DNA of 64,000 nt, from contig JAQOWU010000008.1 in NCBI GenBank assembly GCA_030867685.1, forward strand, positions 4,464,001-4,528,000, given 5' to 3'. Source of the stretch: Wickerhamiella versatilis (taxonomy: Eukaryota). How positions within the stretch are numbered: the stretch's first letter is position 1; the number at the start of each line of letters is the position of its first letter. Under the pieces are notes generated by a model. The model saw nothing but the letters and a program-made list of their open reading frames with translations, was not told the DNA's origin and did no database searches. A program made the translations under genes and the position numbers. Below are positions 11,090 through 18,438 of this stretch, one piece after another.

Positions 11090-12184
11090 ATGGTCAGCAT
11101 CTCCTGCTTGTTTTCCACTTTGTTAGCCGCTAGTGCGGCTCCCCTTATCGAAAAACGCGATGGTGACGGCACGATTGGCGATCAGATGGCCAAGCTTTAC
11201 GTTCCCGAGGACGTGATTCAACAGCTTTACGAATACAGTCCACTAAATGACATTCTGAGCGCTGTTTGGGCGCCTAAAGGCTCACAGTCAGCTGCTCCTG
11301 CTTTTTACAATCTCCTAAACGATCAGAATGCCGCAGTCCCCGCTGTTGACGCCAACGCACAGAACAGCGATGGTAACGCACCCTCGATCAATGAGCTTAT
11401 GGGTGCAGCCTCGGCGGCTGAGCAAATGAATTTTTACAGCGCCGGTGGTAATAATCACCTACAACCATACAACCTTCCTAACACGAACAAGCAGCTCACC
11501 GGCTATGACACTGGTACGGGAATGAAGGCGCGTGTTTTCAAGACTGGCGCTGATAAATTGATCATCTCGTTCTCCGGCTGGAATCCTTTGGATCTTCCTG
11601 TGGATCTTGGCACATATACTCAGGATGAGGGTAGTGTTAGTGGTAAGATCAACGAGGGTCAGAAGAATGCCGTTGCATTTGCACGACTCGTTTACTTGGT
11701 GGCCAAACAGGACGGTAAAACGCAACAAGATATCTATGTCTCAGGCCATTCAACAGGCGCTGGCGAGGCCCAATACGTCGCTCAGCAGCTTGGGTTCAGT
11801 GGAGTCGCCTTTGAAGGTACTGGAATTCCCGAAGACTCCAAGGCTGTCGGTAAAGGCTCCAACTTCATAAGCTTCGTCAACTATGGTGATGTCTGGGCAA
11901 GCTATGCCTCTGATGTCCCCGACAACCCTGTCGACGTTATTGGAGGTCCTAAGAAGGGAACCCTTCCACATTACGGCAAGCTTATGATGGTAGGTGATGA
12001 AGGCCATGCAAAATTGCAGCGTGGGGTGCTTCAATTGTTTGGGTGGACAAAAGCCATTCCTGAAGGCGCACCAATTACTTTCCTCATTGACTTCATCAAT
12101 GAACAGGGCCTTGGTTACCATAATATGAATGAAGATGGTAATCTCAAACCTTATTTGGATAAGAAGGTTGGCCAAGCCGTGTAA
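11090..12184 (+). CDS. Secreted alpha/beta-hydrolase, lipase class 3 / Mbeg1-like
   Basis: Signal peptide plus IEKR; 'LIISFSG' oxyanion strand; nucleophile elbow VSGHSTGAG; 'VNYGDV' catalytic Asp region; C-terminal His (GYHNM). Confidence 0.75.
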   Translation: MVSISCLFSTLLAASAAPLIEKRDGDGTIGDQMAKLYVPEDVIQQLYEYSPLNDILSAVWAPKGSQSAAPAFYNLLNDQNAAVPAVDANAQNSDGNAPSINELMGAASAAEQMNFYSAGGNNHLQPYNLPNTNKQLTGYDTGTGMKARVFKTGADKLIISFSGWNPLDLPVDLGTYTQDEGSVSGKINEGQKNAVAFARLVYLVAKQDGKTQQDIYVSGHSTGAGEAQYVAQQLGFSGVAFEGTGIPEDSKAVGKGSNFISFVNYGDVWASYASDVPDNPVDVIGGPKKGTLPHYGKLMMVGDEGHAKLQRGVLQLFGWTKAIPEGAPITFLIDFINEQGLGYHNMNEDGNLKPYLDKKVGQAV

Positions 12185-13030
12185 GGTTAATGGTATCGCT
12201 AGGCCTAATGGTAACAATGATTTGGAATGAGCACACATCAATTGCGTGGCCGTCGTGTAATACCTCCATAGAGTAATAATATACATTTTAAATATCGACA
12301 GAAACTGTCCACAGATATTGCCTACGTTATTGTTCATAAAGGGAATAGTTGAATTAGCTTCAGACTACGAGGGGTGAACGACACCATCCAGGTATTTCAT
12401 GAGACATTTCGATATTCACTTCAAGACCCCCCACAAGGATTCATAACATGATAGATTTCTGACATCCCAGCTACTGCTGGCAGCCTCATATACTCTTCTT
12501 TGGCAATAACCAGTTTCCTTCGACAAATTTCGTAGCTGTCCTCATAAACCAAAAAATACTTTTTCACACAGCCACCGAAATCCTTACCCACTTTGGCTAT
12601 GCAGGACGGCCCCATAATCCTCCAGAGTAAAGCCACGCGGATTCATGCCGCATCCATCGCGATAAGTATTTTGGTAGCTATTGTTTACCACGTTTGCTTT
12701 ATCTATAGAACGGCATATAACTCAGTGCCACGGCATAAGATGTTTGTGCATAAAACACTTCCCAAAGTACCCAGATTTATCCTGTTGACAGGCCAACGAG
12801 CACTAGAGGCACAGGCTTTTCCTGCAGGATTACTGTTCAAGCGCTCGGGCTCGCGGCGATTAGGTAGTTGTGTTACTAACAAGTTAGTGAGCTGCAGCGG
12901 GAAGTGGCCCTACGCTCAGACCTAGATAAGCTGCTAAGAAACGAAAAGCATATGAGCATTAGATGTAGTGCCAATCATACGCGACAATACGTTAGCTAGA
13001 GGAGGTTAACTCCACTGTTACTTTGTACCA

Positions 13031-13050
13031 GTGGGCTATCTTGCATTGCC
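13031..13050 (-). repeat. Dispersed repeat, right-half copy
   Basis: Reverse complement GGCAATGCAAGATAGCCCAC. Confidence 0.7.
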
Positions 13051-13158
13051 CCGGGAATACCCGCTCGCTCCACTCTAGAGCACTGCTATAGTAAATTGTA
13101 ATGATATTTGATATAATCTTTTAATATAATAATAATTATAATACCCCATACCCGCCCA

Positions 13159-13339
13159 ACCTGGAAAAGAATCCGTTTGGATGGTAGTAAACGTGCTAAC
13201 TTGCCTTGCGGGCTCTTTGCATTGTGCATATGTGCCGAGTGCTGGACTTGCGTTGTTATTTTACTCCGCGGCCCGTCGCGAACAATCGACTTTCGATAGC
13301 GTAACCCAGCTTGGGCCAAACGCGCCTTCTTTTCCCGGT
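13159..13339 (-). ncRNA. Putative structured RNA element immediately 3' of the DIP1984-family gene
   Basis: In the sense strand, ACCGGGAAAAGAAGGCGCGTTTGG (13339-13316) can pair with CCAAACGGATTCTTTTCCAGGT (13180-13159): 3+9+7 bp. It encloses 135 nt with small hairpins and periodic GCA triplets, and is GC-rich next to a very AT-rich flank. Confidence 0.55.
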
Positions 13340-13356
13340 CACCTAAAATCAGCTAC

Positions 13357-13806
13357 TTAAAGATCGACTGTCCAGTTGATCTCCTGCAGATGGACCTCGA
13401 GTTCCCTGAGTTGTTTGGAATACCGATCCGTCTGCTTTTGAAGCTCTGAAGCATCCAGAGTGGGCTGCCTTTTGATTTCCGATCTAGTAATCATTCTACC
13501 ATCAACCGTTGCAACAGTGGCAAATTCGCGTAATGAGCAAACCGTCCTGCGAAGAATATCCCGCCGGGCCAATGCATCGGTCAGAGTTGCTCCCTCGAAC
13601 TTTGTTCTCTCGTTACTATGATTTATTGCCGCTATCAGCTCCATCAACTGTCGCAATTCGTCTTTGTACTGACTTAACAGCTTTTGTGGATCCTCCGAAG
13701 GTTTATCACCTTCCTGTACCACTAAGTTACGCCTTATACGGGTTGAGAGCTGATTTAAACTCTTCTCAAGATCACTTCGGCATAGCAGTGCCTCACCAAG
13801 CTTCAT
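13357..13806 (-). CDS. DIP1984-family ('septicolysin'-annotated) bacterial-type helical protein
   Basis: Family signature throughout: MKLGEALLCRSDL...VQEGDKPSEDP...INHSN...LARRD...RSEIK...LQKQTD.YSKQLRELE..LQEINWTVDL; 149 aa, intronless. Confidence 0.88.
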   Translation of the reverse strand: MKLGEALLCRSDLEKSLNQLSTRIRRNLVVQEGDKPSEDPQKLLSQYKDELRQLMELIAAINHSNERTKFEGATLTDALARRDILRRTVCSLREFATVATVDGRMITRSEIKRQPTLDASELQKQTDRYSKQLRELEVHLQEINWTVDL

Positions 13807-14681
13807 CTCCCGATGATACAGCTGAAATCTTTTCCTGAAATATTAGACCTCCGTGCTTTGCTGTGCTGTAATGATTTTTGCAGATCCAGTCACTTAAATA
13901 GCTCAATGTTCAAAAATTAGTCATTTAATGAGCCACAGTGACTGCTTGGGTGTCGTGAGATCAGAAAGAAATAGCCCGCCACTAGGCCCATCAAGAGAGC
14001 CACTTTTAGCCCATCCAGCCTATTTTTTGGCGCTCAGTTAGCTAGTAATTCTGAGCCCTCGAATAATACTTGTTCTGCCCGTTTGTTTGTTTGATCTAAC
14101 AATAGATATTCATCATGACTGCAGGACGCAATGTGAGATTATTGCATATATTGTTACTAAGCCATATTCAAATGATGGGGAAGGTACACTTGCTAGACCG
14201 AGTAGGTAAATATCGGTTCTTTTTTATCGCCGCTCTCAATGGTGGCTTAGGCTGTCTTTTTTGGGGGGGCACATCATGAAACAAGATTCATTAAAGTACA
14301 ATGCTAAATTAGACATTATATACATCTTAGGTACACATTCATAACCACAATGCACTAGGTATTAGCATTTCAATCATTATCGGTACTGAATATAAGCTCT
14401 GGGAATACCAGAACTTGTGTTTTTGGATAACGGTAAGAAGATCTATTCGCCTGTCAAGGTAGGAGATTACCAAACGGGTATAATCCAGGGACTAATACAG
14501 GCCCGTAGAAAGATAATGATGATAAAAATCAATTAAATATAGATTGTTCTTTTCTATGCCCATAATCGCATCTCAATGATATCCCACTGGAGGTGCTTCT
14601 CAATAAGGGACTTTAGCACTGCTGCTATAGGATTTTTTGCCTGTAAAATAATTGAATTCTTAAACATATGAATAATTAATA

Positions 14682-16155: not shown

Positions 16156-18438
16156 CTAACCGGTCAAACCAACTGCACCAGCACGGCCTCCACATCCACC
16201 TCCACATTTGCTACCTGATGAGCAGCCGCCCATTGACGAACAACTCGCATATCCGCCAACCGAACCACCACCACACTCACCTGTATTACAAGCCCCAGCA
16301 CTTATTCTCCCACTACAGGTTCCGCTCACACAATTTCCAACCGCTCCTGGTGAGAAATTAGCACATGCTGGGTTTTTTGCATACATCGAATTATTGTTCG
16401 AAATATCGATGTCACTCATATAAGGTGCGAAAAATGGCAAGTACACGGGCAGAATACCCCACCTCATTAACTCAGCGTCGTAAGATACCCCTTCATGTTT
16501 TGTTTTGGAATCTTTTAGGTTTTCAATAGCAATGTCAATACCGCGTTTTTTGAGTCGTCGTGAAATCTTCTGGAATTGGTTCTTAAGGCGTAACTGGCGG
16601 TACTCGTCTCTGGAAACCCCTTTTGGCAATATCGAATTGTGGGAGGATATGTGAACTCCTCTATCAGGATTTTTCTCAGAGTGGAGCGCCAGTTCATTGT
16701 CGATGGCTTTACTGGATGCTGTAAATTTGAATAATTTCGGCTCAGACGAGGGCAAGGTTGATTCATGAACAGCCTCGCAATACCAGCAAGTGCACGTGCT
16801 GTAGAGGTGACCGCCAGTGAGCCTTTGATACTCCTTACTGGTCCACTCAAACGAATCAGATAGCTTCCCCTCTTCAACTTTGTCATCGTGGTTGATGAGA
16901 CTATCAGTATGGCTTTCACAAAACAGGTAATACCTAAAAGGAGACAACTGATGAGTATGCCATGCAAGATCAACATCCAATGTAGGCACTGCCATTCTCC
17001 CTGCATTACGAGCTATGATCTCCATGAAAATCTTATATTTGGCAATCAAGCGGGCCATTGTTTTATCGACGGCAGGTGAGTTCAGCCAGTCTAATTCATC
17101 CATCTTGGACACAAACGAACCTTGTCGCAGAACTGCGCCAACAAGATCGAGGGCAAATGGCGATGAATTCTCCCAGTAGCGAGACATCATTTTACGAATG
17201 GACATGCGTCTGAGCTGTGCAATCCTCTGCGGAGTCCTATGATAACCTCCCACGAACCTTAGTGTATCACGATCCTGGGATATCTCCATAAATAAAGTTC
17301 TCACGTTGTTCATGGTTAAACGAGGATCCTTGACAAAATCAGTTACTGCCATCATTTTTTCATAGTTAAAGCCCTTGGTTATATAATGGTTCGCAAAGGT
17401 GTGGACTGGAAGCGTCGGTGTAGGCTGAATTAATCCAGAAGAAGACAAAAGCGTACCAGGCATCGGGATGTTTTTAGCAAACAGAGCTTTTACATCATCC
17501 CGGAACTTGGCAATCCGTAATATATCATGCGTTACGACATAAGAGCAATTTGGGCAGCTGTATTCAAGTTTTCCATCTGCAAATCCCTTTCCATCCTTGA
17601 ATGGATGAATAAGGTTACCCGGGCCTTTCGAAGTGGACCAAGGAATTTGAAGTTCCGACCGGCAACAAGGGCATGCAAGAACTTTGAACGGGAAGTCGTC
17701 CTCATTATCCCACGATCTGCCGGTCTGGTTTTCAAAGTTGGCAGCTGTTTTGGGGGGCGGAGCATAATCGAATGTTGGTCTAATACAGTCATTAATTTGT
17801 GCCCATGGAAACCCTGCAGACCAGAACCATACGCGCTGATATCTCAAGCAATCTTCGAGAAAGTCATGGGGATTCAACATGTAAGAGTGCCACACCATAA
17901 TAACGTCAATGGGGGGTAGAGTCTCAGGGGTCCATGGATGCCGTGCCTGTCTCTCCGTAATCGAGAAGTCTGACCTCTCGATATCCCTGACTGTGAGCTG
18001 CTGGACATTTGACTGTATTCTTTTGTGGGGAACACATTTATCCAACCAGGTTTCAAAGCGATCCACGGCGCGACTGACGTACAATTCCCACCTCTTCTCC
18101 CGAAGCAGCGCCAACGACTGTTTACGCATTTCATCATTAGATTCTGCTATTGCGTTATCCCAAAGGTCAAAAAGTCCGTCTCGAGATGAAATCACATTCC
18201 GTAGATCTGAAAAGACGCTCATAAGTTTAAGATGAGCTATACATTCGTCAACGTAGACAGTCTCTTTCTTCATTTTGCTGTGAGATACTGACCCATCGTT
18301 AGGATAAAATTTCAAAGGGCGCATCCTGGTTGCTTCCGTATATGACGGAGGAGGTGTGTCTTTAGCGGAAATGCTTTTGTGGAACATTGTCCTGTTAGAT
18401 GACAAAGTGTCTCTATCACACTGACAACAGGCAAACAT
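16156..18438 (-). CDS. Glycine-rich-domain protein (GRDP/DUF1399 family)
   Basis: LPPIDVIMVWHSYMLNP and VPTLDVDLAWHTHQLSP...HDD motifs, CPCC/CPNC, and a Cys/Gly-rich tail. Alternative start at Met18 (18387). Confidence 0.85.
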   Translation of the reverse strand: MFACCQCDRDTLSSNRTMFHKSISAKDTPPPSYTEATRMRPLKFYPNDGSVSHSKMKKETVYVDECIAHLKLMSVFSDLRNVISSRDGLFDLWDNAIAESNDEMRKQSLALLREKRWELYVSRAVDRFETWLDKCVPHKRIQSNVQQLTVRDIERSDFSITERQARHPWTPETLPPIDVIMVWHSYMLNPHDFLEDCLRYQRVWFWSAGFPWAQINDCIRPTFDYAPPPKTAANFENQTGRSWDNEDDFPFKVLACPCCRSELQIPWSTSKGPGNLIHPFKDGKGFADGKLEYSCPNCSYVVTHDILRIAKFRDDVKALFAKNIPMPGTLLSSSGLIQPTPTLPVHTFANHYITKGFNYEKMMAVTDFVKDPRLTMNNVRTLFMEISQDRDTLRFVGGYHRTPQRIAQLRRMSIRKMMSRYWENSSPFALDLVGAVLRQGSFVSKMDELDWLNSPAVDKTMARLIAKYKIFMEIIARNAGRMAVPTLDVDLAWHTHQLSPFRYYLFCESHTDSLINHDDKVEEGKLSDSFEWTSKEYQRLTGGHLYSTCTCWYCEAVHESTLPSSEPKLFKFTASSKAIDNELALHSEKNPDRGVHISSHNSILPKGVSRDEYRQLRLKNQFQKISRRLKKRGIDIAIENLKDSKTKHEGVSYDAELMRWGILPVYLPFFAPYMSDIDISNNNSMYAKNPACANFSPGAVGNCVSGTCSGRISAGACNTGECGGGSVGGYASCSSMGGCSSGSKCGGGCGGRAGAVGLTG

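Follow-up and report, generated by a model that had tools for sequence, protein, structure and literature searches.

We identified, in the yeast Wickerhamiella versatilis, a structured RNA element that directly follows a gene of the DIP1984 (DUF6847) protein family and that is, almost certainly, a true member of an RNA family associated with the DIP1984 genes of bacteria and archaea. The element lies in a window of 64,000 nucleotides (nt), i.e., positions 4,464,001 to 4,528,000 of contig JAQOWU010000008.1 (assembly GCA_030867685.1, forward strand), and all coordinates given below are positions in this window. A covariance model, termed R1 (201 positions, 22 nested pairs), which was built from 36 prokaryote sequences and no fungal one, matched the window at a single place (13349-13138, minus strand; 53.1 bits, expectation value [E] 2.6e-15) and did so over its entire length (positions 1-201 of 201), the next-best match in the window having an E of 0.45. 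Similarly, a sequence-only profile of the 36 prokaryote elements (nhmmer) matched 13284-13141 at E 2.6e-6, its sole match in the 128 kb searched. Position 1 of R1 falls 7 nt past the stop codon of the fungal gene. On balance, we favor an explanation that combines this family membership with a mechanism in which protein and RNA would form a ribonucleoprotein (RNP), the RNA serving as a docking rail for the protein.

The DIP1984/DUF6847 gene occupies positions 13357-13806 of the minus strand and encodes 149 amino acids (aa) followed by a TAA stop codon (13357-13359), with no intron. Its open reading frame (ORF) is a full-length member of the DIP1984/DUF6847/NF038048 family, the family of crystal structure 3kdq and called "septicolysin" in older records. 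More specifically, the ORF matched Pfam PF20935 over profile positions 1-141 of 141 (E 1.3e-45; 155.3 bits against a cut-off of 27), NCBIfam NF038048 over positions 1-149 of 149 (E 1.9e-48; 164.4 bits against a cut-off of 70), and the Corynebacterium diphtheriae crystal structure PDB 3kdq (E 5.8e-21). The AlphaFold2 model of the fungal protein (predicted local distance difference test [pLDDT] 90.2) is an all-helical bundle of four helices that superimposes on 3kdq with a template modeling (TM) score of 0.92-0.93, and 3kdq was the sole Foldseek match at E ≤ 0.001. Likewise, an ESM Atlas search returned only the DIP1984 family itself, and PADLOC models matched none of the three DIP1984 family proteins tested. 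A DIP1984 homodimer was predicted with a score of 0.54, versus 0.00 for the best of three controls, the benchmark mark for this score being reached by 21 of 30 proteins solved as one-chain pairs and by 0 of 23 single-chain proteins; the runs agreed in at least 98% of contacts, with a partner pLDDT of at least 86. This pass may possibly reflect memory of 3kdq, a solved four-chain entry.

The closest relative of the fungal protein (88% identical) was the only close one among 5.8 billion proteins (Logan source), and a metagenome scan returned no relative above 49% identity. Prokaryotes have 31 columns with conservation of at least 90%, and all 18 differences from the 88% relative lie elsewhere (chance 0.015); both fungal proteins retain 26 of these 31 columns. 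The comparison with this relative provides evidence, independent of any comparison of the RNA, that the DIP1984 protein is probably under constraint in fungi.

To define the RNA family, we used 80 bacterial and archaeal genome loci encoding DIP1984 relatives, including Methanocella, Paenibacillus, Campylobacter, and Chloroflexota, together with a second sample of 80 further DIP1984 loci from metagenomes. Within the 80 genome loci, the highest protein identities to the fungal DIP1984 were those of Acetobacter senegalensis (52%) and Asaia (50%). The 300-nt downstream stretches of these loci clustered across phylum and domain boundaries. Comparison of the fungal 3' region with the prokaryote loci yielded only 10-19-nt matches by blastn (best E 0.08) and no match by tblastx; a recurrent 14-nt blastn match to a G-rich tail, at a constant offset, was the first lead to the family. 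The non-coding pattern common to nearly all of these loci starts with GGUAGC just past the stop codon and continues with variable hairpins, a conserved AUGCCCAG block, GYAC-type units, and ACUACC, before being closed by the G-rich tail GAGGGYGGGNNNGGGG ~190-220 nt past the stop codon. In its strict form, the tail motif was found within 450 nt downstream of the gene in 59 of the 80 prokaryote loci, whereas upstream sequence and the opposite strand each yielded it in only 1 of 80.

With R1, all but two of the 80 genome loci were matched (78), and so were 42 of the 44 loci outside its training set; the two missed loci were L023 and L065, the latter having only 275 nt of downstream sequence. In the metagenome sample, 76 of 80 loci were matched, and three of the four misses have less than 160 nt downstream. 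Combined, the RNA was found in 154 of 160 DIP1984 loci and was always 3' of the gene on the gene's strand (154/154). Among the 148 full-length matches, the median RNA length was 201 nt and the median distance from stop codon to R1 start was 6.5 nt, with distances of ≤10 nt in 83 and ≤50 nt in 132. An initial annotation of the fungal locus, made from the letters alone, had stated that bacterial DIP1984 genes are commonly followed by a conserved tract with a closing stem and CA-type repeats, and this is borne out by the 78 and 76 loci of the two samples. In one metagenome locus (L097), two tandem RNA copies (1974-2176 and 2294-2468) stand behind a single DIP1984 gene.

The family is a ~200-nt RNA with closing helices, a hairpin, two pseudoknots, and short motifs ~7 nt apart. 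The sequence of the closing helix P1 differs completely between taxa, while its two strands are always complementary: mean duplex energy was -15.2 kcal/mol for cognate strands versus -5.6 kcal/mol for non-cognate ones, and the cognate partner ranked first in 23 of 37 cases and among the top three in all but L012, L022, and L045 (34 of 37). We assessed covariation on two alignments. In A2, a MAFFT alignment of 36 diverse prokaryote members with the structure drawn by hand, 82.6% of cells were paired, relative to 40-45% when partners were slid by 1-3 columns, and the covariation score was 0.412 as against 0.09-0.12 for the slid controls, a value reached by 0 of 500 shuffles; all 5 P2 pairs changed on both sides in A2. 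In A3, a 79-row alignment based on R1, we added three helices that R1 lacks, namely, S1, S2, and the H3-loop pseudoknot; because R1 did not contain these helices, A3 was not fitted to them. The whole-structure covariation score of A3 was 0.549 versus 0.07-0.11 for slid partners, again reached by 0 of 500 shuffles. Covariation downstream of DIP1984 homologs, which the initial annotation had named as a check on a conserved structure, is thus above that of both slid and shuffled controls.

Individual helices of A3 displayed the same behavior. For P2, changes on both sides were seen in 5 of 5 pairs, with 97.7% of cells paired, and for the H-type pseudoknot that follows P2, both-side changes were seen in 4 of 4 S1 pairs and 5 of 5 S2 pairs. 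The GGRGC loop of hairpin H3 pairs with GCYC of the AUGCCCAG block in 88.8% of cells (GC, GU, and AU types), and 3 of these 4 pairs change on both sides. Since G.U pairs are present in A3, the RNA lies on the gene's strand. RNAalifold, applied to the MAFFT alignment, recovered only 4 pairs, and this failure arises because the variable helices are out of register there rather than from an absence of structure. For a candidate third pseudoknot, GGUAG with CUACC, the columns were too invariant or too misaligned. The motifs of the rail, the row of short GYAC-type units, are spaced 6-8 nt apart in prokaryotes (e.g., 7, 7, 7, 7, 6, 3), and ACNACC is present in 55 of 78 prokaryote rows.

Of the 78 prokaryote members, 40 (e.g., L014, L017, and L056) carry a T-arm-like hairpin, GGUUCRANYCC, and many prokaryote members begin with a D-loop-like GUUGGUAG; together, these motifs suggest a possible tertiary contact in prokaryote members resembling the tRNA elbow, and the fungal copy either lacks them or has them in altered form. 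A divergent RNA was seen in p2Cl415, an 8.7-kb plasmid of Acinetobacter baumannii (L161:1985-2180; 12.5 bits with R1); this RNA has no G-rich tail and retains ACUACC as well as P1 (10 bp) and P2 with the internal loop between them. The Acinetobacter plasmid copies may constitute a separate subfamily of the RNA.

In the fungus, the whole R1 match spans 13138-13349 (minus strand, as for all elements that follow), with an RNA core at 13349-13144. The 5' motif GGUGAC (13338-13343), identified from the R1 alignment, is the counterpart of the conserved GGUAGC. The 5' strand of P1 (13327-13339) forms 12 pairs and one G.A mismatch with the 3' strand (13159-13171), and these arms were also returned by a repeat search. 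P1 is separated from P2 by a 4 × 2 internal loop, with GGCG on its 5' side (13323-13326), identical to the prokaryote consensus, and GA on its 3' side (13172-13173), where the prokaryote consensus is GAU. P2 consists of 7 pairs between 13316-13322 and 13174-13180, as verified base by base; because the fungal P2 sequence is unlike that of any prokaryote P2, this helix has been kept through changes on both sides. Next follows the H-type pseudoknot region (13298-13315), in which S1 has 4 pairs (13312-13315 with 13305-13308) and a base-by-base check allowed for a possible S2 of at most 3 pairs (AGC/GCU; 13309-13311 with 13298-13300). An extra hairpin (13285-13297; 5 bp, 3-nt loop) is lineage-specific, at a site where prokaryotes carry variable insertions. 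H3 (13267-13280) is the hairpin CGCG-ACGGGC-CGCG with 4 pairs, and its loop GGGC (13274-13271) forms 4 pairs, including one G.U, with GUCC (13244-13247), the counterpart of GCYC. The rail of GCAC/GCAA units, ~7-8 nt apart and single-stranded, extends over 13189-13243; its spacings are 7, 8, (insertion), 6, and 3, the insertion being a fungus-specific one of ~17 nt. The R1 alignment places the conserved ACUACC at 13183-13188 and, at 13144-13157, the G-rich 3' tail GGG-C-GGG-UAU-GGGG, of which the family form is GGG-Y-GGG-NNN-GGGG. Directly past the RNA lies an AT-rich stretch (13087-13142), a candidate site of fungal 3'-end signals.

Much of what the initial annotation had read from the fungal sequence agrees with this structure. 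It had described two arms, the first beginning 17 nt past the stop codon (13339-13316) and the second lying at 13180-13159 with 135 nt between them, that form a 19-bp stem in segments of 3, 9, and 7; we confirmed both arms, and the stem corresponds to P1 with its G.A mismatch, the GGCG/GA loop, and P2. The inner hairpins it had listed are present at 13305-13315, 13285-13297, and 13267-13280: CCCA-AGC-UGGG is S1, AUCGA-AAG-UCGAU is the extra hairpin, and CGCG-ACGGGC-CGCG is H3. Its CA-rich periodic tract is the family's rail, and the GC-rich character that it noted upstream of an AT-rich stretch was found as well (GC content of 0.51 for the element versus ~0.40-0.42 around it). The 3' boundary that it had set at 13159 fell short, as the element extends 15 nt further, into the conserved G-rich tail (13157-13144). 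A further hairpin that it had proposed, CC-GCAA-GG with a GNRA loop and 2 bp, is not conserved: it sits inside the fungus-specific insertion, and its G is altered at 13209 in a related strain. Its larger proposal, that a two-part module had been carried intact, is supported, the fungal RNA being a full-length family member located at the bacterial spacing from the stop codon.

We also determined the folding energy of the fungal element. Enforcing the homology-derived pairs gave -52.4 kcal/mol versus -57.8 kcal/mol unconstrained, a small cost. In a single-sequence fold of 207 nt, a comparison proposed in the initial annotation, the element folded no better than shuffled controls (z = -0.28; 77 of 200 shuffles folded as well), and the minimum free energy (MFE) structure lacked the closing stem; such a test is uninformative for a pseudoknotted RNA with long single-stranded parts.

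Rfam searches, likewise suggested at the outset, matched no family to the element in Rfam 15. We obtained 0 matches at E ≤ 1 for window positions 12500-14500, a single unrelated tRNA for 20 prokaryote loci at the gathering score, and three weak unrelated matches for one prokaryote element at E ≤ 10. Rfam 15 thus contains no such family, and the RNA is uncatalogued. Our literature searches, which did not extend to subscription journals, found no description of an RNA behind DIP1984, DUF6847, or septicolysin genes. In the records and literature searched, family descriptions refer only to a protein of unknown function and do not mention an RNA behind the gene.

The unit consists of the DIP1984 gene and the RNA, without a third conserved component. 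This composition follows from one-to-one adjacency, the absence of a recurrent flanking family, and the absence of a shared upstream motif. More specifically, each of five whole genomes (150 RNA candidates scored per genome) contained one RNA match and one DUF6847 gene, and the two were adjacent (5/5). The 160 loci fall into 66 groups, and any given protein family encoded within 1.5 kb of the locus, on either side, was seen in 4 groups at most. Upstream of the DIP1984 genes we observed ordinary ribosome-binding sites, and inspection by eye of the 70 nt upstream of 60 genes revealed neither a shared motif nor a conserved 5' partner for the G-rich tail. The gene-plus-RNA unit is mobile: the DIP1984 gene occurs in 372 plasmid records, of which 344 are from Acinetobacter, and in 5 phage records. 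Among 14 control genomes, DUF6847 was present only in that of Deinococcus radiodurans, a tractable species for which small-RNA surveys have been published.

The surroundings of the locus are fungal. Neighbors in the window encode a Zn2Cys6 "fungal specific transcription factor," major facilitator superfamily (MFS) transporters, and glycoside hydrolase enzymes of families GH3 and GH65, and the window's fungal genes are long uninterrupted ORFs on both sides of the DIP1984 locus; the host genome is that of an intron-poor, yeast-like ascomycete. For the GH65 enzyme, the closest named homologs belong to Pezizomycotina and share only 55-58% identity with it. An assembly chimera is unlikely because contigs of four sequencing runs from four studies cover the locus, and a 1,022-nt contig of one of these runs, X20, bridges it (12863-13879), comprising flank, RNA, gene, and flank.

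Three known types of system resemble the DIP1984 unit in part. In Bacillus, the oligomeric proteins TRAP and HutP bind regularly spaced short RNA repeats in the trp and hut leaders. Like these, the DIP1984 RNA presents single-stranded motifs at a fixed spacing (here ~7 nt, 6-7 units), and its protein is predicted to self-associate. In contrast to TRAP and HutP, whose targets are 5' leaders that control other genes through terminators, the RNA described here is 3' of its own gene and has a closed pseudoknotted fold, and the DIP1984 fold is unrelated, with Foldseek returning 3kdq only. An RNA of the TRAP/HutP attenuation type was rejected on position, as the element lies 3' of the gene, and not in a 5' leader, in every one of the 154 matched loci. 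Type III toxin-antitoxin systems such as ToxIN pair a protein gene with a cis-encoded pseudoknotted RNA and are mobile and plasmid-borne. The DIP1984 unit is likewise a mobile, plasmid-borne, two-part module with a pseudoknotted RNA; it differs in that the RNA is downstream, the whole unit is not repeated in tandem, and the protein has no endoribonuclease-type fold. We accordingly discarded a type III toxin-antitoxin array as its identity, the RNA being downstream with only 7-nt-spaced short motifs and the protein having a helical fold and no PADLOC match. Ro (Rsr) proteins are accompanied by bacterial Y RNAs such as YrlA, which carry a tRNA-like domain and are encoded beside their protein partner. 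Here, too, the RNA is encoded beside the protein gene, and a T-arm-like hairpin is found in 40 of 78 prokaryote members; unlike in the Ro system, there is no Y-RNA or tRNA match in Rfam, the fungal copy is without the T-arm, and DIP1984 is unrelated to Ro. A tRNA-like or Y RNA was rejected, since ARAGORN found 0 genes in the window and the element matched no tRNA or Y-RNA family of Rfam. Finally, a stimulator of stop-codon read-through or recoding was also dismissed, the next in-frame stop codon lying a median of 10.5 codons away in 158 loci and 5 codons away in the fungus.

Because the bacterial 7-nt junction is preserved, the gene and RNA probably entered the fungal genome as one contiguous, uninterrupted piece. 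The mechanism that we tentatively propose for the unit, as a plausible rather than a probable one, runs as follows. Transcription of the DIP1984 gene would continue into the RNA, which would form the 3' portion of the transcript: a promoter could not fit into the 6-nt gap, and of 144 loci, 52 have terminator-like hairpins behind the RNA, a weak excess over the reverse-complement control (34 of 144). The single-stranded rail, held open in a rigid pseudoknotted frame, would then let several DIP1984 dimers dock. The result would be a self-contained RNP of protein and RNA, with or without feedback on the mRNA, and such an RNP would need no other bacterial factor. Independence of this kind would explain movement of the unit among bacteria, archaea, phages, plasmids, and a fungus. 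The protein may contact the RNA, be it in an RNP, with the RNA as an antitoxin, or in autoregulation. In the fungus, the RNA is on the sense strand between the stop codon and the AT-rich stretch, the position of a 3' untranslated region (UTR), and it may lie within the mRNA 3' UTR, as suggested by the contig of run X20, whose RNA label is a guess and whose data are assembled contigs. With more reserve still, we suggest that the RNP module may work in the fungus, the bacterial RNA now being made by RNA polymerase II as a 3' UTR.

The X20 contig derives from a related strain and differs from the window at 43 positions in 1,017 nt; 40 of these are listed by position, and the counts that follow rest on those 40. 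There were 22 differences, plus indels, in the 151 nt of the distal stretch (12917-13067), 1 in the 70 nt of the AT-rich stretch (13068-13137), 4 in the 212 nt of the RNA match (13138-13349; at 13140, 13149, 13209, and 13259), 2 in the 7-nt spacer (13350-13356), and 10 in the 450 nt of the coding sequence (13357-13806), 4 being synonymous and 6 non-synonymous. None of the four RNA differences falls in a helix or conserved motif. The whole block 13068-13810 thus carries 17 differences in 743 nt, as compared with 22 in 151 nt in the distal stretch and ~6% in the flanks (~5.5-5.9% for the outer flanks in other X20 contigs). In run X7, a variant contig lacks 132 nt of the distal region, with 12931 joined directly to 13064. 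Because of this gap, and because it is the most divergent part in X20, the distal region (12931-13064) looks unconstrained. More divergent contigs (6-9% different; run X15) still align over 13200-13482. The initial annotation had argued that retention of non-coding bacterial DNA implies selection on the RNA. Such selection is at most a possibility, as comparison with one related strain does not tell constraint apart from a block that is young or introgressed.

Several observations weigh against the explanation that we favor. The fungal copy scores lowest among the full-length matches of the main group, with 53 bits relative to 66-151 bits for most prokaryotes; it lacks the T-arm-like hairpin, a feature that is optional in the family (40 of 78 prokaryote rows) and not defining, and it has an insertion in the rail. 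Its GGUGAC and GUCC motifs depart from the consensus, as does the loss of GA (UU) before the tail. Most DIP1984 proteins are acidic (isoelectric point [pI] 5.0-6.8 in 22 of 26; 7.8 for the fungal protein), which is unusual for an RNA binder. In X20, the gene has an R52-to-stop change (13653) and N65S (13613), the latter in a column that is invariant in prokaryotes, and the RNA behind this broken-looking gene is nearly unchanged, albeit not more conserved than the gene. Furthermore, the low divergence of the block 13068-13810 may reflect a young or introgressed block, or else constraint.

These points bear most directly on the possibility that the element is a passive passenger, i.e., a genuine bacterial RNA without function in the fungus that remains recognizable only through recent transfer or recent spread among fungal lineages. 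We deem this unlikely. It would account for the uniformly low divergence of the block from X20, for the premature stop and the 6 non-synonymous versus 4 synonymous changes in the X20 gene, and for the low score, missing T-arm, and rail insertion of the fungal RNA, which also has 4 changes among the 30 alignment positions of highest conservation (counted by eye). It sits poorly with the finding that every helix is intact, the closing stem having 19 pairs and a single mismatch, and that 0 of 4 X20 differences affect a helix or motif, although the changes are few and the chance of this outcome is ~5% by estimate. Moreover, unconstrained DNA would be expected to erode, whereas the 12% protein divergence between the two fungal lineages spares the 31 conserved columns, and contigs that differ by 6-9% still align over part of the RNA and gene. 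A different function for the RNA is also conceivable: it could be a cis-acting mRNA element that is independent of DIP1984 and either stabilizes the transcript against 3' exonucleases or couples termination to folding. The fixed short spacing behind the stop codon (median 6.5 nt), which would place the 5' motif and the first part of P1 beneath the ribosome during termination, would suit this role, as would the modest excess of terminator-like hairpins. Nevertheless, an RNA of 200 nt with two covarying pseudoknots and a repeat rail is far more elaborate than known stabilizers, and a generic stabilizer should also be found behind other genes, whereas this RNA is tied to one gene family across phyla and domains; we therefore rate a cis-acting element as quite improbable.

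A toxin-antitoxin-like pair, in which the RNA would neutralize a harmful DIP1984 protein in the manner of type III systems, appears to us very unlikely. The two-part composition, the pseudoknots in the RNA, and the patchy distribution of the unit, which is common on plasmids (the 372 records with 344 from Acinetobacter) and found in 5 phage records, would fit such a pair. Conversely, none of three proteins matched a PADLOC model, the RNA is downstream and forms no tandem array of full-length repeats, and the all-helical bundle is matched by 3kdq only. In X20, the gene is broken and the RNA is intact; the logic of addiction forbids loss of the antitoxin first and is silent on its later retention. 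By comparison, a chance inverted repeat in an ordinary fungal 3' UTR, as the z of -0.28, the absence of the stem from the MFE structure, and the lack of an Rfam match might have hinted, is refuted and can be dismissed for practical purposes, because both the prokaryote-only profile (E 2.6e-6) and the covariance model (E 2.6e-15) matched the exact place, strand, and spacing.

The RNA class described here is structurally elaborate and widespread: it is found across many phyla of bacteria, in an archaeon, on plasmids, and in phage records. The protein family to which it is linked has remained of unknown function since 2009, when its structure was determined. The fungal copy amounts to a natural experiment in which no bacterial component other than the protein and the RNA is present. 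Should the pair be functional in the fungus, it would be autonomous, and the RNA would have as its partner the protein itself or else machinery shared by all cells. If the RNP explanation holds, the locus would document that a eukaryote has kept a structured non-coding RNA gained by horizontal transfer along with its protein partner, and the module would be shown to need no other bacterial factor. Transfer from bacteria to fungi is known for protein genes; for a structured non-coding RNA with its fold intact, we found no instance in the literature searched. A yeast-like host would offer easy genetics for dissecting the module.

Two papers bear on the protein family under its older name. The gene is listed as a putative virulence factor of small Acinetobacter plasmids under the label "thiol-activated cytolysin" (PMC5559437), a label at odds with a 150-aa helical bundle. 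A septicolysin homolog of Malassezia globosa, thus of the same family name in another fungal lineage, is regarded as horizontally acquired from bacteria and varies in copy number (PMC12239588); that study is confined to the protein gene and the number of its copies. In neither paper did we find mention of an RNA. The septicolysin/cytolysin virulence label in the plasmid and Malassezia papers looks unfounded and deserves correction.

Two further ORFs in the window were noted. The convergent neighbor of the DIP1984 locus (11090-12184, plus strand) is an ORF of 364 aa; its start resembles a signal peptide, it contains the lipase-like motif GHSTG, and it had no Pfam match at E ≤ 0.01. On the minus strand, a 760-aa ORF at 16156-18438 carries a long C-terminal tail rich in Gly, Cys, and Ser.

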